Positions 29,811 through 46,498 are shown, counted from the stretch's first letter. The stretch is 64,000 bases of DNA from a virus (IMGVR_UViG_3300037521_000345:1-64000); one strand, 5' to 3'. The notes: generated by a model not told the origin, from the sequence alone. Made by a program: numbers and translations.

Positions 29811-29829
29811 TTCATTTTTAAAATCACCT

Positions 29830-29845
29830 CTATATATATTAATAA
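29830..29845 (+). promoter_or_regulatory. recurring phage promoter-like motif A CTATATATATTAATAA
   Basis: Exact copy; flanks (TTCATTTT..AAAA upstream, CT downstream) also resemble the 41231 copy. Confidence 0.7.
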
Positions 29846-31090: not shown

Positions 31091-31092
31091 TA

Positions 31093-31108
31093 CTATATAT
31101 ATTAATAA
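31093..31108 (+). promoter_or_regulatory. recurring phage promoter-like motif A CTATATATATTAATAA
   Basis: Exact copy upstream of 31155 gene. Confidence 0.7.
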
Positions 31109-32781: not shown

Positions 32782-33231
32782 ATGTCAACAAAAACAATTC
32801 AAGAACGATTTCAAACATTAAATGAATTAATAAGAACAGTAGCAACAAATCTCGAACCACATGATACAATCAAAGCTCTTCAACAAAAACAATTGAGAGA
32901 TAGATTAAGAGGAAAATATCCAAAGTGTTTTCTTTCTATTAAAGCAATGGGTGGACAAGATCCGGATTTTTTTCCAGTCTGTAATACAGCAGGAATGATA
33001 GATGTTAGAGCAATAGAGATATCTCTAAAAGCAGTTTCAAGATTGATGAACGATACCAGTGGAGCATATGATACTAATGATCTATCCATGATGTTAGCAA
33101 AACTTCAAAGGATGAAAGATGTCTATTCTAAGACTATTCCAAAACCACCCAATCAAGCAGGAAGAAAAGCAGTAGTCACCAGAATGATGAATAATGTTAA
33201 AGATCATTTAAAAGTAACTAGGACTGACTAA
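32782..33231 (+). CDS. hypothetical protein, first gene of RNAP operon
   Basis: 149 aa, GGAGG SD, coupled to beta' gene. Confidence 0.75.
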   Translation: MSTKTIQERFQTLNELIRTVATNLEPHDTIKALQQKQLRDRLRGKYPKCFLSIKAMGGQDPDFFPVCNTAGMIDVRAIEISLKAVSRLMNDTSGAYDTNDLSMMLAKLQRMKDVYSKTIPKPPNQAGRKAVVTRMMNNVKDHLKVTRTD

Positions 33232-36200
33232 TGAAAATAAAATTTCTTGATGTTGATAGATTTGTGAGAGGATTAGATCCTGTTACAACTGCTGAATTTA
33301 GAACTAGATCTGGAGAGTTTCATCCAGATGGTTTATTTAGTGAAAAAATATTTGGTGTTGAAAATTCTAGGGATCGAACCCAGACCTACTCATATATAAA
33401 TCTTAGTACTACAGTTATACATCCTGCTGCATTTATTATCTTTAAAAGAATTGATAAAAAACTAATTAATTTTTTTTCAACTGAAAAACTTTTTACAATT
33501 CAAGATAATGGATTATATTTTGAAACTGAAAAAGGGGTAACAGGAATCAAGGAATTTATTAAAGCATTTCCAAAGTTAGAATTTAAAGCTGGAACACCTG
33601 CAAGAGAAGGATTAATTGAAGTTTTGAAAGAGAATTATAAGAATGGTACATTATTCATTGATAAAATTCCGGTTATACCTCCTGAACTTAGACCAGCATA
33701 TATGGATGAAAAGGGTCAATGGATTATTGATGAGCTCAATCCCGTTTATATTGGTCTTTTAAGAAGAGCAACTCAAATAAAAGGTATTGGTAAATCAGGT
33801 GCATTGTTTGATCTGTTAAATTATAACTTACAATTAGCTGTTAATTCACATGATAAATATATTCGAACAAAGATCTCTAAAAAACATGGACTCATTAGAG
33901 ATAAAATGATGGGAAAAAGAGTTGATTTTTCAGCAAGAGCTGTTATTATTCCTGGACCAAAACTAAAAATTAATGATGTGGGATTACCTTTAAGAATAGG
34001 AATTCTTTTATTTCAACCTTTTATTATACACCATATGCTTTATTCTCAAAGATATCCAAGATATGCTGAATTAGAAAGTGAAATTAAAAATTATACTGAT
34101 TCTGAATTATCAGTCGATACAATAAAAAGAGTAATGAAAGGAATCAAGGATGATGATAAAATTCCTGTGTCCTTATATGAGCTATTTTTTGAAGTATGTG
34201 AAATCGTGATGAAAGATAGGGTTGTTATATTAAAACGCGACCCTGCACTACATGACGGTTCATATAGAGCATTTAACCCTATATTAACAAGAGGTAGTGA
34301 AATAGAATTATCAACAATGCAAGTTGCTTCTTTTAATGCAGATTTTGATGGAGATCAAATGGCAGTTTATCATCCTCTTTCAGATCAAGCTCAACAAGAA
34401 GCTAAAGAAAAAATGATGAGAGGAGTTGGAAGTAAAAGTTCAAATTCTATTATGTATGAGATTTCAAAAGAAATGAGTTTGGGTATTTACTTAATGACCA
34501 AAGCAACTAAATTAAAAAGTTCTCCAATAGCAGTAACAATGGATGATTTGAAAAAAGCAAATAATCCATACATCCCTGTTAGATTTAGAGGTCATAATAC
34601 AACAATGGGAAGAGCTATTTTAAATTCTTCATTTCCTTCTGACTTTAAATGGATTGATGGACAAGTTACAAAAAGTGATGTTAATAAATTAATTCCTGAA
34701 GTTATTGATAAATATGGGGATGAAGCTTCAGCTAATATTTTTACAAGTGTTAAGGATGTAGCATTTAAATTTGCAACGATTGGAGCATCTTCATTAACTT
34801 TAGATATATTAGATATACCTGATAGTATATTAAGATTGAAAGAAAAACTTGTAGGGTCATCTCCAGAAGAAGCTGATAAATTATTGAAAGAGATGGAAGT
34901 ATTATTAAAGAAACATTTAAAAGATACTGGTCTATACGATTTGATTGAATCTGGTTCTGCAAAAGGTTGGAGTCAACCAATGCAGATTCTTGTTGCTAAA
35001 GGTATTATTGCTGATACAAGTGGTAAATTGCTCGAACCTATTAAAGGATCATTTTCAGAAGGGTTAACAAATATAGAATATTTTAATGCAGCAGGTGGTG
35101 CTAGAAAAGGAATGGCAGATCGAGCTTTGAATACTGCTACAACTGGATATTTTACAAGACAACTTGTCTATGTATTATCTCCAGTAGAAGCACATCCTAC
35201 ACTAAAAGATTGTAAAACAAAACGAACTATTCAAATAAGATTAAATAATGATCTTATTAAAAGGATGTCAGGTCGATATATTATTAAAAGTGGTAAAATA
35301 GTTTTATTTAAAAAATCAGATTATAAACCAGGGGATGTTGTTAACTTAAGAACATCTATTTATTGTGAGTCTTATAAATTATGTCATACCTGTTATGGGG
35401 ATTTATTGAAACGTCATAAATCTCCTTATGTTGGAGTTCTAGCAGGAGCATCAATTGGAGAACGTGGAACTCAATTAATTATGAGAACATTTCATACTGG
35501 TGGTGCTGCTAGTATAGTTATTCGTGATGTTTTAGCAGATATTATTGATAATGATCCAATGATTGAAGTAGGTAAAACAAAGTTAGGCGAATATTTACAA
35601 CAGGAAGATGATAAATTAATAGCTAAAAAAGAATGTAATATAAAAATTGATCTGTCAACATATGAAGTAGAAAAATCTTATTTAATTGAAGAAGATAATG
35701 TTTGGTTTAATCACCTTGTTTCGCAAGTAGAATTTAATGATATAATTTTTAATATGGCACTTGATTATCCAGTTCATTTATTAAAACAGAATTTTAAAAA
35801 GGTAGGAAAAGAATCACTAATATTTAAGTATTCAATTGGAGATACGATATTAGAAATTCCTTTACAAACAACAGAGATTAAAGAGCAGGTGAATTATGTT
35901 AATAGATTAATTGGAGGTCGAGTAGTTTATAAGGATCCTTCTCATTTGTTAACAAAAGTTATGAAAGTGTATGGCGGAAGTATATCTGATTTAGACTTAT
36001 GCTATTTTGAAGTCCTATGTTCACAAGTTTTAAGAGATAGAAAGAATCAAGTATTACCTGCAAGACTTGGAAAGACTTGGGATCCTGTAATGATGAACAT
36101 TAAAAGCACAGTTTTTAGTACAAGTTTTATTCAGAGTTTAGCATTTGAAAACATCAATAAAGCTATTGAAACTGGATTGATTTCTAAACAAGATGTGCCT

Positions 36201-36248
36201 GCAACAATATTAGAGAAATTAGTGACAGGAGAGGATTTAAGGAAATAA
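33231..36248 (+). CDS. rpoC: phage multisubunit RNA polymerase beta' subunit
   Basis: GLFSEKIFG, GKRVDFSARAVI, KRDPALH, NADFDGDQM, ARKGMADRALNTATTGY, TQLIMRTFHTGG. Confidence 0.95.
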   Translation: MKIKFLDVDRFVRGLDPVTTAEFRTRSGEFHPDGLFSEKIFGVENSRDRTQTYSYINLSTTVIHPAAFIIFKRIDKKLINFFSTEKLFTIQDNGLYFETEKGVTGIKEFIKAFPKLEFKAGTPAREGLIEVLKENYKNGTLFIDKIPVIPPELRPAYMDEKGQWIIDELNPVYIGLLRRATQIKGIGKSGALFDLLNYNLQLAVNSHDKYIRTKISKKHGLIRDKMMGKRVDFSARAVIIPGPKLKINDVGLPLRIGILLFQPFIIHHMLYSQRYPRYAELESEIKNYTDSELSVDTIKRVMKGIKDDDKIPVSLYELFFEVCEIVMKDRVVILKRDPALHDGSYRAFNPILTRGSEIELSTMQVASFNADFDGDQMAVYHPLSDQAQQEAKEKMMRGVGSKSSNSIMYEISKEMSLGIYLMTKATKLKSSPIAVTMDDLKKANNPYIPVRFRGHNTTMGRAILNSSFPSDFKWIDGQVTKSDVNKLIPEVIDKYGDEASANIFTSVKDVAFKFATIGASSLTLDILDIPDSILRLKEKLVGSSPEEADKLLKEMEVLLKKHLKDTGLYDLIESGSAKGWSQPMQILVAKGIIADTSGKLLEPIKGSFSEGLTNIEYFNAAGGARKGMADRALNTATTGYFTRQLVYVLSPVEAHPTLKDCKTKRTIQIRLNNDLIKRMSGRYIIKSGKIVLFKKSDYKPGDVVNLRTSIYCESYKLCHTCYGDLLKRHKSPYVGVLAGASIGERGTQLIMRTFHTGGAASIVIRDVLADIIDNDPMIEVGKTKLGEYLQQEDDKLIAKKECNIKIDLSTYEVEKSYLIEEDNVWFNHLVSQVEFNDIIFNMALDYPVHLLKQNFKKVGKESLIFKYSIGDTILEIPLQTTEIKEQVNYVNRLIGGRVVYKDPSHLLTKVMKVYGGSISDLDLCYFEVLCSQVLRDRKNQVLPARLGKTWDPVMMNIKSTVFSTSFIQSLAFENINKAIETGLISKQDVPATILEKLVTGEDLRK

Positions 36249-36280
36249 CAGTCTGTGGAAGTATTTGGAGATAAACTCAT

Positions 36281-39200
36281 ATGATTAAATTTCAATCTTT
36301 AGTTCAATATTCAAGAGTAGTTGATGGAGTTCGTTTCTTTTCAGATAAGGATAGACCGTTCGTATTATTTTATTTCTCCGAGAATTCAACTCTATATGAA
36401 GATTATCCTAAAATGAATTTAAGAAGAATAGATGCAAGATATATAGTTGTTCCAATAACCCAGATACCTGTCTCTAGATTAACGGGCGATCAAAGAAAAG
36501 TTTATAAATCTTTTGGTTTACTTCCATTTCAATCAAATCAAGTATATCCCTTAAATGCAAATATTATATTCGATACCAGTAAATATGTTTCCTTGATAGA
36601 TAAGATGTATAAACCAACAACATATAGACAAAGAGCAGGTTTTCTTCTAAATAATTTTCTTTATAAATCATTTAATTCGTTTCCTGATAACTATGAAAAA
36701 GTTCTAATTTATACTGTTGATGTTAATAAACCAATCAATTCGTTTATAAATCGAAAGATTTTTCCTATATTAAGAACTATGAAAGGAGATGAAATTTCAT
36801 TTGATCATATGCTTATGGCATTGATTGGAGAGTCGTCAACTAGATATAGACTATTAGTTAAAGACAGAAACTATAAATTTGCAAGAGTTTCTCAATATAT
36901 AAGAAAAGTTAAAATGATTAGTTCAGATGATGAGAAAGAACAAGAAGTTAAAACAGCAACGAACTCATTTGATGAGAAAGATTCTAAAGTTAAAACAGCA
37001 ATTCAAAACTATTTAAATAAAAATGCTAAAGATCTTGAGAAAGTTTCTAATAATGAACTTGATAAAACAGAAAGAGATAGATTAACAATAGCTTCTATCT
37101 TATATAAATTAACAGGAGATTTTCAAAAGTCTCAAAGACTTGCAAAAGCTATTCCTAAAAAAAGTATTAAAACTGCAACTGAAAAGATAAGTCGTTTATA
37201 TAAAGATGACTTATTAACAGGTGAAAAAGCTGTTAGTCTTAGTGAATCATATATTGTTCAGGGAATAAATGTTTCCAGGGTAGTTCAAAATAAAACACCA
37301 GAGCATATATTTGACAAAAGAAGAATTGACTTTCAAACAAATTTAAAAAAGGATATGTCAAATGCTTTTAAAGTTTTAGAAAAAGGAAACGTTCCTATTA
37401 AATTTAATTCATTTAAAATTACTCATAAAAAAGGAAGAGCTGGAGAACTTAAAAAATCAGATGTTTCAATTATAACTGTAAGTATAACAGATGCAGCAGG
37501 AAAGAATCAAACATTTGAGTTTGAAATTCCACAGATTGATCCTGACTCTGGAACATTTAGAGTTAATGGTCAGCGCAAATGTTTAATTAATCAAATAGTG
37601 TTGACTCCAATAAGTTTTCCTAAACCTTATGATTCCAAATTTGAGAGTTCATATGCAAGATTCCATATCTATAGTAAGAAGACAAAGAGATTGTCGTATC
37701 TAGAAGCATACATGGGTTCCTTCCGCCTACCCTTGATGATACTGTTATCATATTGTTTTGGATTTGAAAAAACAGTTAAAAAATTAGGATTACAATATGA
37801 AATTGTAAAAGATAAACCTAATAAGGATGTAGTCTTTACAGAAGTTCCTTCTTCATATATGGTATTTAAAAATTTAGATACTGATTTAAAAAAGGAAATG
37901 GTAACATCATTCACGCACGCTAAAATTAATCAATACAACATTAAAAAAGATTTTTTATCAAAAGATTATTTTGTAGAGTTGATTATACAAATGACTGGAC
38001 GTGTCGATTCAACATATCTGATAAATAATAATATTGATTATATCGTTGATCCAGTTGCAAAACAAATTTTAGTTAATCAATTATTACCATATAAATTAGA
38101 AGATATTATGCATTATATGGCAACTAAATCTGTTGATGGTTATGTTCAAGAAAGAAATGATATTAAATATCAAAGAATTAGAAATTCAGAAATTTTAGTT
38201 CATTTAGCACAAAAACAATTTCTTAGTTCTTATACTGAATATAAAGAACAGTTTTTATCAGGAAATAAAGATGCTAAATTTAATTTTCCTCCAGGAGTTA
38301 TATTAAGTCAATTTACTAACTTAGAGATAGTTCAAAATATGGAGTATGCAAATCCAGTTGAAGAGATGGCAACAATTACAAAGATTTCTCCAGTTGGAAA
38401 AACAGTTGGAGGTATTCCAGATAAGGAAGGATTAAATCTTCAAGCTCGAAATGTTCATAGATCATATTTTGGAAATATTGATCCGGTGGATACAGCAGAA
38501 GGTGGTAACATTGGGGTAACCCAACAGTTGACAGTGGACGCATATTTAACATCCTCCCGTGGATTGTTTGGAATTAAAGATTTAAAAAATGATGAAGGAG
38601 CTGGAATATTATCTACAACACTTTCAATGGTTCCATTTATTGAAAACAATGAAGGTGCAAGAATGATAATGGCAGGTAATCAAGGAAAACAAATGTTACC
38701 TTTAAAAAATCCAGAACCTCCTATAGTTCAAACAGGATATGAGTCATTACTTTCAAATGTTTTGTCTAATAATTTTATCAAGAGATCACCTTGTGCTGGA
38801 AAAGTGACAAAAATTACTGGAGATTTTATTGAAATAGCTTGTAATAAAGGTTCTAAAAAGAAAGTTGTTATCACACCAGTTCAATTAAAATCAGGAGCTG
38901 GAAAAAATACATTGAGCACATTTAAACCATCTGTTGAGGTTGGACAATCAGTTAAAAATAAGCAAGTAATTGCAGAGGGAAGTTGTATTTCTGGCGGAAC
39001 TATTTCATTAGGAAGAAATCTTGCTACTTGTTATATGCCTTATCAAGGATATAATTTTGAAGATGGTCTTGTAATAAATGAACGATTAGTATCTGATGAT
39101 AAATTAACTTCTTTACATGGAATTGATGTTGAGGCAACAGTTGATCGTAAAGATAGAATTTTACATATTATTGATATTGGAGCTAAAACTAAAAAGGGTG

Positions 39201-40345
39201 ACCCTCTAATAAGAAAGACAGCAGGTGAAATTGAAGAACTATTAGGATTTCAAGAAGAAGAGGAAGAAGGAGTTGATGTATATGAGGGTCAAATAATTAC
39301 AAAAAGTCCAGGTGGTCATGTTGTTGATATTGACGTATTTTCTAATATTGATATAGATTCTTTTCCTTCCATTAAAAAGTTAGTTGAAAGAACTAATAAA
39401 AAATATAAAAAACCTACTAAAGAAAAATTTACAACTAGAGGGGTTTCAATTAAAGGGATATTAATTATATTTAGAATTGAACAAGAGTTAAAAATTGGAG
39501 TGGGAGATAAACTCTGTAACCGATATGGAAATAAAGGTATTATATCTTTAGTTCAAAAAGATGAATTAATGCCAAGAACACCTTGGGGTGAAACAGTTGA
39601 TATTATTATGAATCCTCTTGGAGTTACTGGTCGAATGAATATAGGTCAAATATATGAATTGTATTGTGGTCTTATCTCTAAAGAAGTAGCAAATAGAATG
39701 GTTAAATTGAGCAAAGCTCAAGGCATTGCATTGATGAAAGCTGTAATAACAAGACTTGATAATACAAAAAATAAAAAAATTAGTACATCATTGATTGCTA
39801 CAATGACTGCAATGAGCGATGTAAAATATAAAAAGATGTTAGAGCAAATTCAAAAAGATAAGTTTATACCAATAGTTATTCCTCCATTTCAATCTCCTAA
39901 ACATAAAAGTATTTTAGAAGTATTAAAATTATTAAAATTAAAAACAGGATATAAATTAAAACTTCCAGAGTATAATACAAAAACTCAAAATGCGGTTCCA
40001 TTTGGATATGAATATGTTTCTAAATTAGAACATATTTCAGATGCTAAATTACATGCTAGATCAACTGGTCCAACAACTGGAAAAGTTGGTCAACCAACTG
40101 CTGGTAAAAGAAAAGAGGGTGGGCAAAGAATAGGAGAAGGAGATACATGGGCATTAACAAGTTATAATTGTCCTACAATATTATCTGAACTCTTTGGACC
40201 TATGTCTGATGACTTTGTATCTAAAAATGAAATGATGTCAGAAATTATACAAAATGGAAGAACAGATTTTAAAGAAACAAAAATGTCTCCAACTAGAGAT
40301 TTATTAAAAGCATATTTTATTTCTTTAATGCTAGGAGGTCAATAA
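36281..40345 (+). CDS. rpoB: phage multisubunit RNA polymerase beta subunit with N-terminal extension
   Basis: GTFRVNG, DTAEGGNIG, GYNFEDG, GDKLCNRYGNKG, MNPLGVTGRMNIGQ, KLEH, GGQRIGE. Confidence 0.95.
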   Translation: MIKFQSLVQYSRVVDGVRFFSDKDRPFVLFYFSENSTLYEDYPKMNLRRIDARYIVVPITQIPVSRLTGDQRKVYKSFGLLPFQSNQVYPLNANIIFDTSKYVSLIDKMYKPTTYRQRAGFLLNNFLYKSFNSFPDNYEKVLIYTVDVNKPINSFINRKIFPILRTMKGDEISFDHMLMALIGESSTRYRLLVKDRNYKFARVSQYIRKVKMISSDDEKEQEVKTATNSFDEKDSKVKTAIQNYLNKNAKDLEKVSNNELDKTERDRLTIASILYKLTGDFQKSQRLAKAIPKKSIKTATEKISRLYKDDLLTGEKAVSLSESYIVQGINVSRVVQNKTPEHIFDKRRIDFQTNLKKDMSNAFKVLEKGNVPIKFNSFKITHKKGRAGELKKSDVSIITVSITDAAGKNQTFEFEIPQIDPDSGTFRVNGQRKCLINQIVLTPISFPKPYDSKFESSYARFHIYSKKTKRLSYLEAYMGSFRLPLMILLSYCFGFEKTVKKLGLQYEIVKDKPNKDVVFTEVPSSYMVFKNLDTDLKKEMVTSFTHAKINQYNIKKDFLSKDYFVELIIQMTGRVDSTYLINNNIDYIVDPVAKQILVNQLLPYKLEDIMHYMATKSVDGYVQERNDIKYQRIRNSEILVHLAQKQFLSSYTEYKEQFLSGNKDAKFNFPPGVILSQFTNLEIVQNMEYANPVEEMATITKISPVGKTVGGIPDKEGLNLQARNVHRSYFGNIDPVDTAEGGNIGVTQQLTVDAYLTSSRGLFGIKDLKNDEGAGILSTTLSMVPFIENNEGARMIMAGNQGKQMLPLKNPEPPIVQTGYESLLSNVLSNNFIKRSPCAGKVTKITGDFIEIACNKGSKKKVVITPVQLKSGAGKNTLSTFKPSVEVGQSVKNKQVIAEGSCISGGTISLGRNLATCYMPYQGYNFEDGLVINERLVSDDKLTSLHGIDVEATVDRKDRILHIIDIGAKTKKGDPLIRKTAGEIEELLGFQEEEEEGVDVYEGQIITKSPGGHVVDIDVFSNIDIDSFPSIKKLVERTNKKYKKPTKEKFTTRGVSIKGILIIFRIEQELKIGVGDKLCNRYGNKGIISLVQKDELMPRTPWGETVDIIMNPLGVTGRMNIGQIYELYCGLISKEVANRMVKLSKAQGIALMKAVITRLDNTKNKKISTSLIATMTAMSDVKYKKMLEQIQKDKFIPIVIPPFQSPKHKSILEVLKLLKLKTGYKLKLPEYNTKTQNAVPFGYEYVSKLEHISDAKLHARSTGPTTGKVGQPTAGKRKEGGQRIGEGDTWALTSYNCPTILSELFGPMSDDFVSKNEMMSEIIQNGRTDFKETKMSPTRDLLKAYFISLMLGGQ

Positions 40346-41211: not shown

Positions 41212-41230
41212 TTCATTTTAAAAAATACAT

Positions 41231-41246
41231 CTATATATATTAATAA
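41231..41246 (+). promoter_or_regulatory. recurring phage promoter-like motif A CTATATATATTAATAA
   Basis: Exact copy about 30 nt upstream of the RNA array. Confidence 0.7.
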
Positions 41247-41274
41247 CTGATAAAGAGAAAATTGTTTAGTTTTT

Positions 41275-41387
41275 AAGTTCTAAGAAGACTTTATGTGATT
41301 CCAGAGCTGTGTTGGTACAGCATCATACTATAAATGTGAAGTCAGGGTTCGAGTCCCTCATATTACATTTCTTACTTCTTAGAATTT
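41275..41387 (+). ncRNA. array unit 1: Y-RNA-like scaffold carrying tRNA-like D/anticodon(ATA)/T arms
   Basis: TTCTAAGAAG/CTTCTTAGAA outer stem; ATGTGAT/ATTACAT inner stem; GCTG-TGTTGGTA-CAGC, TCATA-CTATAAA-TGTGA, AGGG-TTCGAGT-CCCT. Confidence 0.75.
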
Positions 41388-41397
41388 TTATTTTTTA

Positions 41398-41503
41398 TCT
41401 GGAAAGACTTTATGTGATTTCCGAGCTGTGTTGGTACAGCATCTTACTATTAATAAGAAGCAAGGGTTCAACTCCCTGTAACTTACATCTGCTACTTTCC
41501 AGA
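41398..41503 (+). ncRNA. array unit 2: same scaffold with tRNA-like D/anticodon(ATT)/T arms
   Basis: TCTGGAAAG/CTTTCCAGA; ATGTGA/TTACAT; GCTG-TGTTGGTA-CAGC, TCTTA-CTATTAA-TAAGA, AGGG-TTCAACT-CCCT. Confidence 0.75.
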
Positions 41504-41514
41504 CCTATCAAAAT

Positions 41515-41580
41515 TTTCTAAGAAGACTTTGTGTAATTCCAGATCGATGCATCCAAATTACACCTATTACTTCTTAGAAA
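41515..41580 (+). ncRNA. array unit 3: short scaffold RNA
   Basis: TTTCTAAGAAG/CTTCTTAGAAA; GTGTAATT/AATTACAC; CCAGA motif. Confidence 0.7.
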
Positions 41581-41590
41581 CACAACTTTC

Positions 41591-41690
41591 AGATGAGAAG
41601 ACTATATGTGGTTTCAGAATACAGAAGCAAGTGTTTAATACACACTTAGTCCTTGTAATACCTTTGTCCTACATAAACTACTTCTCATCT
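41591..41690 (+). ncRNA. array unit 4: scaffold RNA with internal hairpin
   Basis: AGATGAGAAG/CTTCTCATCT; TATGTGG/CTACATA; TCAGA; AAGTGT-TTAATAC-ACACTT hairpin. Confidence 0.7.
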
Positions 41691-41697
41691 CATTTTT

Positions 41698-41762
41698 CCT
41701 GAAAGACTTTTTGTAATTTCAGATTTATTGGAAAATCATCAATTACAATTACTACTTTCAGG
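41698..41762 (+). ncRNA. array unit 5: short scaffold RNA
   Basis: CCTGAAAG/CTTTCAGG; TTGTAATT/AATTACAA; TCAGA. Confidence 0.7.
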
Positions 41763-41770
41763 TTTTACTT

Positions 41771-41837
41771 TGTGGGGTCACTCAGTATAGAAAAAAACCT
41801 ATTCGGGGTTCTAAACCTATACTAATAGTACCCCACA
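41771..41837 (+). ncRNA. array unit 6: sequence-divergent hairpin with same geometry
   Basis: TGTGGGGT/ACCCCACA, 5x6 internal loop, AGTATAG/CTATACT, apical AACC/GGTT hairpin. Confidence 0.55.
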
Positions 41838-41845
41838 TCTTTTCT

Positions 41846-41904
41846 AAATGGACTTAATGTGATTTCAGACCTGCATAGTGTTAAGATTACATTTACTTCC
41901 ATTT
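41846..41904 (+). ncRNA. array unit 7: short scaffold RNA
   Basis: AAATGG/CCATTT; ACTT; AATGTGATT/GATTACATT; TCAGA. Confidence 0.65.
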
Positions 41905-42001
41905 TTTTGAAAGGAAATTGATGAAAGATTCTTTTATTCTAAAACATTGGTTATAATTGCTTTACGTCGTCAGAAACATTTAAAGGGAAAGGAGATCTAA
42001 A

Positions 42002-43513
42002 GTGCCAGGAGAGTTAGGATTAATTGATTCAGGTATATTGCAGTTTGCTCCAAAGGGAGCTTATTATGAAGGAAAAGATGAGCAATATAATGCCATCAAT
42101 AGCATGTGGGAAAGTCTATTTAAATATGATAGAACTTTATTTTCTTTGCTAATGTTGTTAAATGGAACAGGTTTTGCAAAGGGATCAATGTCTCACATCT
42201 TATTATCGAATCCATTAGAGGAATCCAAACTTCCAGTATTAGATAACCTACCTTCCCATTTTGAGAAGGATATTATAAACTATGCTCTTTATAAGGAGAG
42301 AACTCCAAGAGCATTGAAAAATTTATTAATGTTAACAGGAGCAGAAGGGCACAGTAAAGTTAATAATTCTAGAACAAGAAAAATGATTTTAGAATTTATA
42401 TTCAATCGAGATAATAATAATCTTGATAATCTTGCTGTGAATTATAAAGGCAAACTTCAAACGCTGATTACACATGCTCTTGGAAAACAAGATCTAGCAA
42501 AAATTCTTGGTGGTGACAAAAAATCATTTGAAAAATTCATTGGAAAATATAATAGACATTCTTTTCCTGTAGTTCTTCATATATTCAATATGGATATTCC
42601 AACTGTGGGAGCTTACTTTCCAATGATTGAAAAATATTATAAACTTCGAAACGCAGCACAAGAGAAAAATATTACAGAATTTAAAAAATTAATGAAGGGC
42701 ATGCCAGAAAGAACAGTCATGGGTATGAGGAATTTATATAAAGTTAACATTCCTATATCTGAATTAAAAGATGAAACTACCAAATCACAAAAGGATAGAA
42801 TTCAAGGACAGGCAGCAGCTAAAAGAGCTGGAACAAAGATAGATATTGATTATAAAAAACAAGATATCTATGACTTATTTAAATTTCTATATTTTAAAAT
42901 CAAAAACAATGATGGTGAGGATTTTAATAAAATATTATATGCCATTGATCACGTTGCAGGCAAACTTCCTAAAATAGATATTGGAGAATGTGTAGTAGTT
43001 ATGGATGCTTCACATTCAATGATGGGAAGTGATGAAAGACCAATGCATCCATTTCTAACTGGACTATCTATTACTGCAACTCTCAAAAATATAAGAGAGT
43101 ATATATATGTTGGAGGAGAAACAGCTAAAATGGAAGGTAATGATTTTCCAGAAATTGTAGTTCCTTGCAATAGTACAGATTTATGGAGAGGATTGATCAA
43201 AGCTGTTAAAACAGGTGTTGAAAATATAGTTATCATTTCAGATGGTTATGAAAACACCATCAAAGGAATGTTCAAACACGTATATGATCACTTAAAAAAG
43301 AATGGATATAAGTTCAAAGTAACTCATATCAATCCTGTATTTTCAGCTTCATCTGTTAATGGTTCAACAAGAAAATTAGCAGATGATATTAAATCTATGC
43401 CAGTAGGAAACTATAAGTATTTAGAAACAGAAGTTATTTTTTCTAGACTTGTAGAGGATAAGGAAATGGTTAAAAAAATATTAATCTCAAAATATAGAAA
43501 TTTACTTCAATAA
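42002..43513 (+). CDS. vWA-domain protein with helical N-terminus, Ro60/TROVE-like
   Basis: GTG start with AAGGAG SD; C-terminal MIDAS VVMDASHSM...STDL...IISDGYEN; 503 aa and architecture like Ro60 (TROVE identity inferred). Confidence 0.65.
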   Translation: MPGELGLIDSGILQFAPKGAYYEGKDEQYNAINSMWESLFKYDRTLFSLLMLLNGTGFAKGSMSHILLSNPLEESKLPVLDNLPSHFEKDIINYALYKERTPRALKNLLMLTGAEGHSKVNNSRTRKMILEFIFNRDNNNLDNLAVNYKGKLQTLITHALGKQDLAKILGGDKKSFEKFIGKYNRHSFPVVLHIFNMDIPTVGAYFPMIEKYYKLRNAAQEKNITEFKKLMKGMPERTVMGMRNLYKVNIPISELKDETTKSQKDRIQGQAAAKRAGTKIDIDYKKQDIYDLFKFLYFKIKNNDGEDFNKILYAIDHVAGKLPKIDIGECVVVMDASHSMMGSDERPMHPFLTGLSITATLKNIREYIYVGGETAKMEGNDFPEIVVPCNSTDLWRGLIKAVKTGVENIVIISDGYENTIKGMFKHVYDHLKKNGYKFKVTHINPVFSASSVNGSTRKLADDIKSMPVGNYKYLETEVIFSRLVEDKEMVKKILISKYRNLLQ

Positions 43514-43530
43514 AGGGAGGATCCAAAAAT

Positions 43531-44502
43531 ATGTCAATATTGAAAACATTAGGATTTACAAATCTTAATGCTGGAACCGTTCAAGTTGTGGATGAAATGA
43601 CAGTAGTGCCCTTAATTAGTGAAGATTTAGGACAAGTTGCTGAACCATTTTCATTGAAATTCAGACGAACAAACACTTATGGTTCCATGATTTATGAGAA
43701 TTTAGATAAGGAATCTCCTGCGATCATTCCCAATAATATTATGGTGAGAGGATTGAGTGCACAGGATCACGCAATGGCAGGATCAGGAGTGGTTAAAGCT
43801 GAAAAATCAAAAACATTCAATAATGCTTGCTGTATTGAATCAAGTCAAGGTGGATATCTAGGTGAAGAAAATAATGAATATGATATCTTGCCTGTTCAGC
43901 TTCGTAAGAAACTTATTCCATTAGATATAAGAAATAAAAAAAGTTATGATAAATTATGGCCAGAAATTACAGCATGGTTGAAAGGTACTATTGATGTATC
44001 TCCTCGTTTCTCAAGTGCCCATCTAAGATATTTCTATGATGATCCTGAAATAAAGAAATCTCTTGAAACATTCTCCGCTGAATTTGAACCTGTATTAAAT
44101 CAAATCGGTGCTATTATATTATTTACAGATAACATTGTTGGTATAGAAGTTATGCCAACTCTTTCACATTGGTATTATTACTGGAAATTATTAATTCGTG
44201 GATGTTATGGAGCTGAATTATTAAGACGTAAAAAATTAAATATAATTAAACCAGCTAAATTGAAACTTCCAAAACTTCCAAAAGATATTGATCAGATATC
44301 TTTAGTTGGCGATACTTATACAGATGGTATTCGTCAAAACATTATTAAAAAATTAGACACTATTAATTTGAAAACAACTTCAACTATTATAGAAAAAGTT
44401 GAAGATATTAATATTATATTATTAAACAGTGAATCAGGTGGTAGCGGTGGAGATTTGATTACTCAAAAAGATAAACCAATATATCTTTCTATAGTGATGT
44501 AA
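43531..44502 (+). CDS. ARPP/DUF6569-like protein
   Basis: N-terminal Q...MTVVPL, AQDH, CCIESSQGG, NQIGAII...VGIEV pattern recalled for this family. Confidence 0.5.
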   Translation: MSILKTLGFTNLNAGTVQVVDEMTVVPLISEDLGQVAEPFSLKFRRTNTYGSMIYENLDKESPAIIPNNIMVRGLSAQDHAMAGSGVVKAEKSKTFNNACCIESSQGGYLGEENNEYDILPVQLRKKLIPLDIRNKKSYDKLWPEITAWLKGTIDVSPRFSSAHLRYFYDDPEIKKSLETFSAEFEPVLNQIGAIILFTDNIVGIEVMPTLSHWYYYWKLLIRGCYGAELLRRKKLNIIKPAKLKLPKLPKDIDQISLVGDTYTDGIRQNIIKKLDTINLKTTSTIIEKVEDINIILLNSESGGSGGDLITQKDKPIYLSIVM

Positions 44503-44669
44503 TGGATAATCAAGAACTTGAGAGACTAATCAAAAAAATAAGGAGAAGATTAGTGGCATTTATACAAAGTCCATCTACTGCTCCTAAAATCATCGTCGCT
44601 ATCGCTCAAGCGTGTGGAATAAAAATCCCACTCGAAGTTGAGAAGAAATACGATTCTAAAGAATCCTAA
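44502..44669 (+). CDS. small hypothetical protein (55 aa), not in ORF track
   Basis: TAATG coupling to 43531 gene; MDNQELERLIKKIRRRLVAFIQSPSTAPKIIVAIAQACGIKIPLEVEKKYDSKES. Confidence 0.6.
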   Translation: MDNQELERLIKKIRRRLVAFIQSPSTAPKIIVAIAQACGIKIPLEVEKKYDSKES

Positions 44670-44864
44670 AAGAACCACCCTGATTGTTTCGATGATCTGT
44701 GGTATTCGCTTTTAGTCTTTATGGTTCATATGAACCCTAAAAGACGCACCCCTGTCATTTCGGTGACCTGTGGTATTTGCTTTTAGTTATTAATTTTAGT
44801 TATTAATTTAACTATTATTAAGACTATTAGCAAATACCACAGGTCATTGGAATGGCAGGGGTGC
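44665..44864. repeat. two 52-bp direct repeats plus an inverted third copy and a 14-bp palindrome
   Basis: Copy A 44665-44716, copy B 44736-44787, inverted copy 44829-44864; GGTTCATATGAACC at 44723-44736. Confidence 0.85.
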
Positions 44865-44917
44865 TATTTAATCTTCTGTTTTGTTGTTCTAAATTTTTTT
44901 ACATTGGGAGCTAATTA

Positions 44918-45517
44918 ATGAGTTTATTAAATGATAGATACATGCGAAGAGTTTCAACTGAAAGATATATTGAACAATTAGGAGCAGAGGTTTATCCTGT
45001 TGCACTTATTAAATTTTTATTAAATAAAAGAAGAATTATGAGTTATTTTTTGGAAGCAATAGATCAAAATTTCAATCCAAAGTTTAAATTCGATTTAGAT
45101 ACCGAGAATTGCGAAGGATGTAAAATGAGAAAAGATGAAGGACTACTTTGTCGCCAACATACATCAATTCGTAGAGTGTTGAATGCTAATTCAGTTGCAT
45201 TTGATTTGGATACATATACTTATCTTTATCAAAATGAAATCTATCGAATGATTGAAAATAAATTAGTAATTATTTACTGTCCACATCCTAAATTAATATC
45301 AGGAGACATAACAGATTCAAAAGTAAGAAGGATAAATCCTATAACAGTTGAGGATCCAAAATTACAAAATCTTCCAATATATAATAAAGTTTGTAATTTT
45401 ATATCATCAGAATTATTAGATGTACATATGAGTTGTTGGTTTAATAATGAATTTACAATAGTGACAATACCCGCAGATAGACATGGGCAAAACTGGTGCC
45501 TGTTTCCAAACAGGTAA
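44918..45517 (+). CDS. hypothetical protein with CxxC...CxxH motif
   Basis: 199 aa, CEGC...LCRQH. Confidence 0.7.
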   Translation: MSLLNDRYMRRVSTERYIEQLGAEVYPVALIKFLLNKRRIMSYFLEAIDQNFNPKFKFDLDTENCEGCKMRKDEGLLCRQHTSIRRVLNANSVAFDLDTYTYLYQNEIYRMIENKLVIIYCPHPKLISGDITDSKVRRINPITVEDPKLQNLPIYNKVCNFISSELLDVHMSCWFNNEFTIVTIPADRHGQNWCLFPNR

Positions 45518-45541
45518 AACTTAATAGGAGGAAAGAGAACT

Positions 45542-46498
45542 ATGACTGGATTTGAAGAGTATGGAGAATTACAAGGAGTTGGATTTCAAGGACAAACAGA
45601 ATCAATACCACCAGAAGAAGAATTTTTCAAGAGTATTTACATTGCTGGTATTACAAGAAAGAATCATATTAATATAGAAGAAATAGCAGGTAAAATACAA
45701 ATTAGAGGATTGGAATATAATCTAACTGAAGTTAATATGATTATTACTCATACAAAACCAATACTTGTTAGAGAACCAGAGAAAGGAACTAGAGATATGT
45801 TCTCTTGCTTCTCATATAAGAATGGTCCTGCACCATGGTTTGGAACAACTCAACTTGAAGATGGAAGACCAAGACCTTGTCCTGCAACAGCTTCCGAAAG
45901 AGCTCTCGTTGATTTCTGTGCTCCTTGTAGAGGACAAATTCTTGTTGCAGGAGTTTATTGTAATCCTGATGGAACACCAGCTACAGATTCAGAAGGAAAA
46001 CCCACATTTATATTTCTAAGGGGTAAAGGGGTAAAGTATGGAAATATATCAGGTTATCTTGATGAAATGTATAAATTAGAATTATCTCCTATTTTTGAAC
46101 CTGTTACAGATCAGAGTCAAGAATTTGAAAGAGTAGTTGTGAATAATAAACGTCACGTCACTCGAATTACAATGGGACAAACCACTACAAGATATGGTGA
46201 TAAAAATGTTTTTGTATTAGAAAAAGGTCCTAAATTAGATAATCAATCTGTAATGAATGTATTAGACGTTACTAAAAAGACTATGGAAAAGTTTAATGAA
46301 AAATTTGACTGGAGTAAAAAACGAAAACCAGCAAGACCTGATGGTGTTCTAGCAATGGATGCTCCAGAAACGGATCATACAGCTCCTGATGAATCAAATA
46401 CTGCTGATCCAAAATCTACAGAACAACCTGCTGAAACATCTGCTGAAACACCTCCACCTTCAGAAAAAACATTTAGCTTTGATAAAATTGAGTTTTAA
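45542..46498 (+). CDS. putative single-stranded DNA-binding protein
   Basis: 318 aa, acidic/Pro-rich tail ending FSFDKIEF typical of phage SSBs; AGGAGG SD; inferred. Confidence 0.5.
   Translation: MTGFEEYGELQGVGFQGQTESIPPEEEFFKSIYIAGITRKNHINIEEIAGKIQIRGLEYNLTEVNMIITHTKPILVREPEKGTRDMFSCFSYKNGPAPWFGTTQLEDGRPRPCPATASERALVDFCAPCRGQILVAGVYCNPDGTPATDSEGKPTFIFLRGKGVKYGNISGYLDEMYKLELSPIFEPVTDQSQEFERVVVNNKRHVTRITMGQTTTRYGDKNVFVLEKGPKLDNQSVMNVLDVTKKTMEKFNEKFDWSKKRKPARPDGVLAMDAPETDHTAPDESNTADPKSTEQPAETSAETPPPSEKTFSFDKIEF

Follow-up and report, generated by a model that had tools for sequence, protein, structure and literature searches.

The DNA at positions 41,231 to 44,669, plus strand, of a virus contig (IMGVR_UViG_3300037521_000345:1-64000; the window, here meaning the whole 64,000-nucleotide stretch that was analyzed) raises the question of whether a row of small structured RNAs and the protein genes behind it form a single ribonucleoprotein system. 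Ro60 proteins and their Y RNAs constitute a classic but still poorly understood RNA-surveillance system. An earlier note on this stretch proposed a phage relative of that system, made up of a promoter motif, seven RNAs, a 503-amino-acid protein, a 323-amino-acid protein and a coupled open reading frame (ORF) of 55 amino acids, and all of these parts are present where the note placed them. The locus probably encodes a Ro60/Y-RNA-type particle aimed at tRNA biology, in which the 323-amino-acid protein, a member of the ARPP family, would act as the enzymatic subunit. This reading is carried by the folds of the proteins, the coupling of their genes, the structure and conservation of the RNAs, and the tRNA genes found around related loci. 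Loci that combine a Ro-like gene, an ARPP gene and RNAs built on a shared stem scaffold, hereafter the handle, are a widespread and undescribed branch of Ro60/Y-RNA machines, usually located beside tRNA genes.

The 503-amino-acid protein (42002..43513, plus strand) has a helical N-terminal domain and a C-terminal vWA domain with a MIDAS (metal-ion-dependent adhesion site) motif. An AlphaFold2 model built from 30 homologues (predicted local distance difference test score (pLDDT) 81.8; predicted template-modeling score 0.74) assigns residues 1-321 to the helical part and residues 325-503 to the vWA domain. When this model is searched against the PDB with Foldseek, the first 11 matches are all Ro60/TROVE structures, full-length and with E-values of 6e-5 to 8e-4, and include Ro60 from phage phiLo, Xenopus, human and Deinococcus. 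Alignment to phiLo Ro60 with VIA yields a Z score of 14.5 for 9kop (379 aligned residues, root-mean-square deviation (rmsd) 5.9 Å) and 13.0 for 9l5y. A scan of 48,161 PDB representative chains made without Foldseek identifies just three chains that align beyond the vWA domain (363-404 residues), and all three are Ro60. In the ESM Atlas, residues 1-322 alone retrieve TROVE and DUF2828/TROVE clusters at 0.91, which is a lead and not proof. Within the MIDAS motif, D335, S339 and D414 are invariant in 87 diverse family members and T391 is the majority residue, while S337 is invariant in the 30-member alignment (A1) and shows conservation of 90% or more in the set of 87.

Relatives of the 503-amino-acid protein fall into 367 clusters at 50% identity, all unannotated, and the protein itself has no match in Pfam, PHROGs, NCBIfam or PADLOC, nor among PDB sequences searched with phmmer. 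A profile comparison with hhalign links it to a Ro60 alignment with a probability of 91.6% and an E-value of 8.4e-7, confined to the last helix and the vWA domain; against a single Ro60 sequence, the probability is just 33%. Several observations weigh against a Ro60 assignment. The Pfam TROVE family (PF05731) does not match the protein at E-values up to 10, and a profile of the 87 members failed to retrieve Ro60 from PDB sequences. The structural match is loose (rmsd 5.9-7.8 Å, template-modeling score 0.36-0.50), and matches to the vWA domain alone already reach Z scores of 10-11, so the helical part adds little to the Z score. A six-frame scan of the contig for TROVE likewise gives no match, and neither do ten distant relatives of the protein. 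The 503-amino-acid protein is best explained as a Ro60 that has diverged very far, with the MIDAS vWA domain closing a helical ring and the sequence link to TROVE lost.

The 323-amino-acid protein (43531..44502, plus strand) belongs to the ARPP-1 family according to Pfam (PF20208, E-value 2.3e-16, 60.4 bits against a cut-off of 27). Residues Q18, Y50, Q78, C101, G108, E186, Y226 and G227 are invariant across 32 diverse partners, and Q106 nearly so; the invariant Cys and Gln of ARPP described by Iyer et al. 2022 (PMC9503650) are both kept here. Both protein assignments of the earlier note are thereby upheld: a divergent Ro-like protein whose N-terminal part folds as the Ro60 helical ring (by the Foldseek ranking, the chain scan and the ESM Atlas) and whose C-terminal vWA domain retains its five MIDAS residues, and an ARPP-like partner. 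The ARPP-1 model is confident (pLDDT 91.7). It has no solved relative, as Foldseek returns nothing at E-values up to 1e-3 and the best VIA match reaches a Z score of only 5.7 over 42 residues. That absence counts against the reading of the locus as a Ro60/Y-RNA-type particle.

The two genes are tightly coupled across a broad set of genomes. Loci with Ro-like relatives were gathered to a total of 163, of which 71 come from bacterial and archaeal genomes and the remainder are viral. Among the 131 distinct loci with sufficient downstream sequence, an ARPP-family gene directly follows the Ro-like gene in every case, in phages, bacteria and archaeal bins alike. ARPP-1 occupies this position on the same strand in 128 (64 viral and 64 cellular; median gap 12 nt), and ARPP-2 takes its place in the other three. 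One database protein of 884 amino acids (P0242) is a fusion of the Ro-like and ARPP proteins. Apparent fusions in GC-rich Myxococcota loci may be artefacts of ORF calling and are not claimed. The earlier note had described a phage system; the pair does occur in phages, but it is not restricted to them, since half of the loci found belong to cells, where they are placed within tRNA gene arrays or next to them. No neighboring family other than ARPP is common to cellular and viral loci. A caution here is that a single phage clade supplies much of the synteny.

Some loci show insertions near the pair. In one phage group, a NUMOD4/HNH homing endonuclease gene lies between the Ro-like and ARPP genes (at about 5665-6228 in L126, L128, L132 and L133; also in L125, L136 and L137), widening the gap between them to about 570 nt. 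In a second phage group, the conserved upstream neighbor encodes a DnaB-type helicase that a LAGLIDADG (intein-type) domain interrupts (L122:44-2719).

Upstream of the Ro-like gene in the window, the 790-nt gap at 41212-42001 folds as a row of hairpins on the plus strand. Seven hairpins are present, as the earlier note had counted, but the handle is common to only six of them. The basal part of the handle is a stem of 6-11 bp ending in G-C, followed by an internal loop with ACUUU on its 5' side and NNNCUA on its 3' side; the former is the internal loop to which the note had drawn attention, and it proves to be a conserved element. Above it lies an upper stem of 7-8 bp (AUGUGAU/AUUACAU), then UUCAGA, and then an apical module that varies from unit to unit. 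RNA 1 (41280..41382) and RNA 2 (41399..41502) carry tRNA-like modules, with cores at 41305-41358 and 41416-41485 and anticodon-position triplets AUA and AUU, respectively. RNA 3 (41518..41577) and RNA 5 (41698..41762) have short apical loops, RNA 4 (41593..41688) bears a long hairpin module that is not tRNA-like, and RNA 7 (41844..41906) is the last handle unit and is followed by a run of U; for RNAs 3 and 4 these are predicted folds. RNA 6 (41771..41837) is predicted to fold as a separate long hairpin lacking the handle, and counterparts of the same build occur at the same place in two related loci, L003 (4756-4832) and L004.

The handle behaves as a conserved RNA structure. A custom covariance model of it, R1, matches exactly the six units in the window, at E-values of 1.1e-7 (RNA 1), 3.3e-6 (RNA 2), 5.3e-10 (RNA 3), 2.7e-7 (RNA 4), 3.9e-13 (RNA 5) and 4.3e-8 (RNA 7), an overall range of 4e-13 to 3e-6, with no other plus-strand match in the 64 kb. 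In 11 related viral loci it finds 3-9 units each, always on the same strand and between the same two flanking genes. In a set of 15 short units, drawn from the window and from related loci, the handle helices are 95.1% paired, compared with 72% after shuffling and 35-49% when slid, and compensatory changes occur at 14 of 17 pairs. The extraction script partly selected the basal stem in this set for pairing. No such selection applied to the upper stem, in which pairing reaches 97%. The 55 R1 hits, in an alignment fitted to the model, give 93.6% pairing with compensatory changes at 14 of 15 pairs.

The handle is not a recognizable Y RNA, which tells against a simple Ro60/Y-RNA identity. The GNCGAA of the bacterial Ro-binding motif GNCGAAN0-1G is absent from 41212-42001, and the array RNAs have no match to Rfam Y_RNA or YrlA at E-values up to 10. 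The earlier note had itself remarked that the scaffold is unlike the canonical Ro-binding helix.

A repeated handle with variable inserts also recalls guide-type RNAs, with variable "spacer" loops that would guide the two proteins to nucleic acids of complementary sequence; arrays associated with tRNA and containing variable spacers have been noted as candidate systems (PMC10910872). This explanation is highly improbable. The apical loops have no matches beyond chance in the 99-kb contig to which the window belongs, many modules are folded tRNA-like domains instead of open guides, and searches of Pfam, PADLOC and NCBIfam find a nuclease or Cas-like domain in neither protein.

The tRNA-like modules link the array to tRNA biology. 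The Rfam tRNA model scores RNA 1 at 29.0 bits (model positions 9-63) and RNA 2 at 29.9 bits, reaching the gathering score. Both cores hold D, anticodon and T arms in that order, with non-standard acceptor pairs, and ARAGORN reports no tRNA anywhere in the contig, the window included. The triplet at the anticodon position varies from phage to phage within the window's clade. The idea that A is over-represented at anticodon position 34 was discarded, as it is seen in only 5 of 20 triplets.

Outside this clade, the handle persists in a diverged form. R1 yields only weak matches there and a strict ungapped handle finder found none; the diverged handle was read from alignments. ARAGORN calls tRNAs in 110 of 147 loci, every one on the strand of the Ro-like gene, with the highest counts in Minicystis rosea (38), a 192-kb phage (34) and Rhodopirellula (24). 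The tRNA genes, or tRNA mimics borne on handles, usually lie just upstream of the pair on the same strand. The call nearest the Ro-like gene is usually no ordinary tRNA and sits inside the diverged handle. On its 5' side, this handle runs through a basal stem, (G/A)ACU, an upper stem and (U)NCAG into the tRNA-like core; on its 3' side, the returning upper strand is followed by a loop ending in CUA and then the basal stem. It is found in Planctomycetota, Myxococcota, Bacteroidota, an archaeal bin and several phage groups. Of 55 nearest-upstream tRNA-like calls, 34 have the pattern ACT.{10,14}CAG immediately on their 5' side, compared with 40 of 449 other tRNA calls. A test of flank-duplex energy is confounded by acceptor bases and GC-rich genomes and is not relied on. 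The neighborhood survey that the earlier note had suggested therefore shows that the gene pairs generally do carry such RNAs upstream.

In 12 Pirellulaceae loci, an RNA of ~130 nt is almost identical save for its anticodon loop (CUU, AUU, AUG, UAG, UUU). More distant relatives show compensatory changes in the basal stem. In these Pirellulaceae (L019-L030), a tRNA-Cys(GCA) gene always directly precedes the handle-borne mimic, about 100 nt before it. In five other loci (L040, L047, L085, L093 and L100), the nearest-upstream mimics are called with 2-nt anticodons (tc, tt), so the anticodon loops of those mimics are of non-standard size. Downstream of ARPP, L085 has a further two calls, whose anticodons are 4 nt long (ggga).

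These distributions bear on whether the array and the protein genes belong together at all. If they were functionally unrelated neighbors in a conserved phage gene order, the hairpins would be transcription or processing signals or regulatory leaders for the genes behind them. In favor of this stand the restriction of strong strict-model matches to one phage clade with conserved synteny and the terminator-like U-run of the last unit. The explanation is very unlikely, because unrelated genomes with no other neighboring gene in common have tRNA mimics on handles directly upstream of the pair, six to nine units with exchangeable apical modules far exceed the needs of a leader, and the tRNA-like cores score as tRNA in Rfam.

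A different question is whether the two proteins simply handle tRNA. They could be a chaperone and a modifying or repair enzyme serving the neighboring tRNA genes, with handle RNAs as substrates or processing intermediates instead of stable scaffold partners and a likeness to Ro60 that is only architectural. In favor of this, the pair is flanked in many cellular loci and some phage loci by large, co-oriented tRNA arrays, ARAGORN calls as tRNA some embedded modules in which ACCA follows an acceptor-like stem, and the helical domain has no sequence link to TROVE. However, the 99-kb contig keeps six handle units while having no tRNA genes, three units in the window have no tRNA-like module, and the handle itself is conserved and covaries across phyla. 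Furthermore, some of the anticodon triplets are of kinds that do not decode, A34 and UUA among them, and full-length fold matches are limited to Ro60. On these grounds, a plain tRNA-handling pair is unlikely.

The preferred reading, a Ro60/Y-RNA-type particle, suggests a possible mechanism. The 503-amino-acid protein would bind the shared handle of each array RNA, leaving the variable apical module, which resembles tRNA in RNAs 1 and 2 and is a different hairpin in the others, as the part that the particle displays. Like the effector module of known Y RNAs, this apical module may tether or bait a tRNA-recognizing factor. ARPP-1, whose gene invariably neighbors that of the Ro-like protein and in some cases is fused to it, is taken as the enzymatic subunit; it would probably dock on the vWA/MIDAS face and may act on RNA sugar or end chemistry. 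The job of the particle is most likely tRNA-directed surveillance, repair or protection, as the module lies in or beside cellular tRNA arrays and the anticodon loop is the fastest-changing part of the mimic. In phages, this could take the form of counter-defense against tRNA-targeting nucleases.

A bolder and rather unlikely extension is that of a programmable tRNA-guarding particle. In such a particle, the anticodon loop would set which nuclease or tRNA is engaged, the ring would hold the bait, ARPP would react, and phage arrays would multiplex counter-defense. The ARPP reaction on an RNA sugar or end might then amount to repair, to removal of an adduct such as ADP-ribose, or to a trap for the attacker. 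Arrays would arise as phages multiply the handle, and cells would retain a single copy together with spare tRNA arrays.

Among known systems, the closest is the Ro60 of Thermus phage phiLo (9KOP, 9L5Y), which binds the upstream-encoded RNAs Yrl1 and Yrl2 and recruits host PNPase (PMC12135203). It is the best structural match to the 503-amino-acid protein, and the two systems share a phage-encoded helical ring with a vWA domain and partner RNAs encoded just upstream, built as stem, internal loop and stem. PhiLo Ro60 has a recognizable TROVE domain and RNAs with a CGAA motif, two of them rather than six or seven, whereas here the sequence link to TROVE is lost and the handle has a different internal loop (ACU..../..CUA). 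No ARPP partner is described for phiLo, where host PNPase is the effector; in the branch described here, an ARPP gene is always attached.

Bacterial Rsr systems, including Salmonella rsr-yrlBA-rtcBA and Deinococcus Rsr-Yrn1-PNPase, likewise combine a ring protein with adjacent modular RNAs (PMC4201824). YrlA RNAs mimic tRNA, and bacterial Y RNAs resemble the array RNAs in having one module that imitates the D and T arms and in their link to tRNA damage and repair (PMC4201824). The array RNAs share the modular build of bacterial Y RNAs, a terminal stem with an internal loop plus a tRNA-like effector module, but lack their GNCGAAN0-1G motif. The arrangement also differs. YrlA is permuted, with the T arm first, the acceptor-like stem closed and the Ro stem in place of the anticodon arm, whereas here the arms run D, anticodon, T and the handle replaces the acceptor stem. 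The partner genes of Rsr are RtcB and RtcA, in contrast to ARPP here. The branch bears on the purpose of the tRNA-like module of bacterial Y RNAs, to which it adds an obligate, enzyme-like ARPP partner, an RNA handle that is recognizable across phyla, and a genomic setting inside tRNA arrays with a hypervariable anticodon loop. Taken together, these three features point to tRNA attack and defense as the selective force.

ARPP proteins have been described in ARG-centered ADP-ribose conflict systems, in neighborhoods with ARG, HIRAN, WYL and deacetylase domains (Iyer et al. 2022; PMC9503650). The protein in the window shares with these the ARPP-1 family, its invariant Cys and Gln residues, and a fold that is predicted to be rich in beta structure and has no known relative. 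In contrast to those systems, Pfam detects no ARG or macro domain beside the 323-amino-acid gene, and the ORFs flanking the pair have no Pfam family. The ARG or rhodanese-phosphatase gene context from which the family took its name is thus absent, and the only neighbor of ARPP that recurs across loci is the Ro-like gene. That paper mentions neither a vWA or Ro-like partner nor tRNA arrays, and TROVE occurs in it 0 times. ARPP, so far known from ADP-ribose conflict contexts only, gains a concrete RNA-linked partner here.

Long tRNA arrays provide the third comparison. Arrays of this kind in Anabaena respond to translational stress by induction and are linked to RNA-processing genes (PMC8421152, PMC4758250). 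The cellular pairs and some phage pairs described here lie inside co-oriented arrays of 16-38 tRNA genes. The linked genes named in the consulted sections of those papers are HNH endonuclease, RtcB and DpsA, and a Ro-like/ARPP pair is not among them. Unlike tRNA arrays of bacteria and phages, the phage in the window has no ordinary tRNA genes in its 99 kb. With this branch, tRNA arrays gain a conserved pair of protein genes. Literature searches found no description of a Ro-like/ARPP/handle-RNA system.

The array of Minicystis rosea contains a further Ro60. A canonical protein of 565 amino acids (L165:1378-3075; TROVE E-value 5e-43, plus vWA_Ro60), named "Prophage Clp protease-like protein" in its NCBI record, shares one tRNA array with the Ro-like gene of L028 and is located roughly 4 kb upstream of it. 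As a canonical Ro60 coexists with the Ro-like/ARPP pair in this array, neither is redundant with the other.

Of the 99-kb IMG/VR virus contig, the window covers the first 64 kb. CheckV puts the completeness of this contig at 32%, so the phage genome is probably about 300 kb. The source is best explained as a jumbo-type phage in which the array and the genes form one transcription unit. Genes in the window are dense on the plus strand. Two ORFs of 1005 and 1354 amino acids at 33231-40345 match beta-type subunits of phage multisubunit RNA polymerase, and this ORF pair lies directly upstream of the RNA array in all loci of the clade. Megablast against GenBank phages returns nothing, and tblastn returns one huge phage. 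PADLOC and NCBIfam assign no family to the 503-amino-acid, ARPP-1 and 55-amino-acid proteins or to their neighbors, with no match to known anti-phage defense.

An AT-rich motif, TCTATATATATTAATA, lies ahead of the array at 41230..41245 on the plus strand and is likely the phage promoter of the unit. Of 11 related loci, 10 keep it in front of their array. The window holds four copies, counting those with no more than one mismatch (starting at 1141, 29829, 31092 and 41230), all intergenic and on the plus strand, and the other three (1141-1156, 29829-29844 and 31092-31107) are candidate promoters for the phage's own polymerase. A sigma-70 promoter scan and an intrinsic terminator scan show no enrichment.

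Downstream of ARPP, the 55-amino-acid ORF (44502..44669, plus strand) encodes a small basic protein and shares one base with the ARPP stop codon. It appears to be an accessory confined to the window's clade, since a basic protein of 48-61 amino acids follows ARPP in 10 of 11 clade loci and is absent from about 150 others. Two ORFs after the unit, of 199 and 318 amino acids (window 44918-46498), are kept in all clade loci and have no family in Pfam, PHROGs, PADLOC or NCBIfam.

The unit appears to end at a long, near-perfect hairpin followed by a U-rich tract (44746..44866, plus strand), a terminator-like structure of 36 bp with a predicted folding free energy of -103.9 kcal/mol (z -13.8). A hairpin and U-tract occupy the same place in 11 of 11 clade loci, and a CACAUAGUGG-like core is common to the hairpins of several of them. 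About 70 nt ahead of the hairpin in the window, positions 44674-44712 hold a partial direct copy of its left arm.

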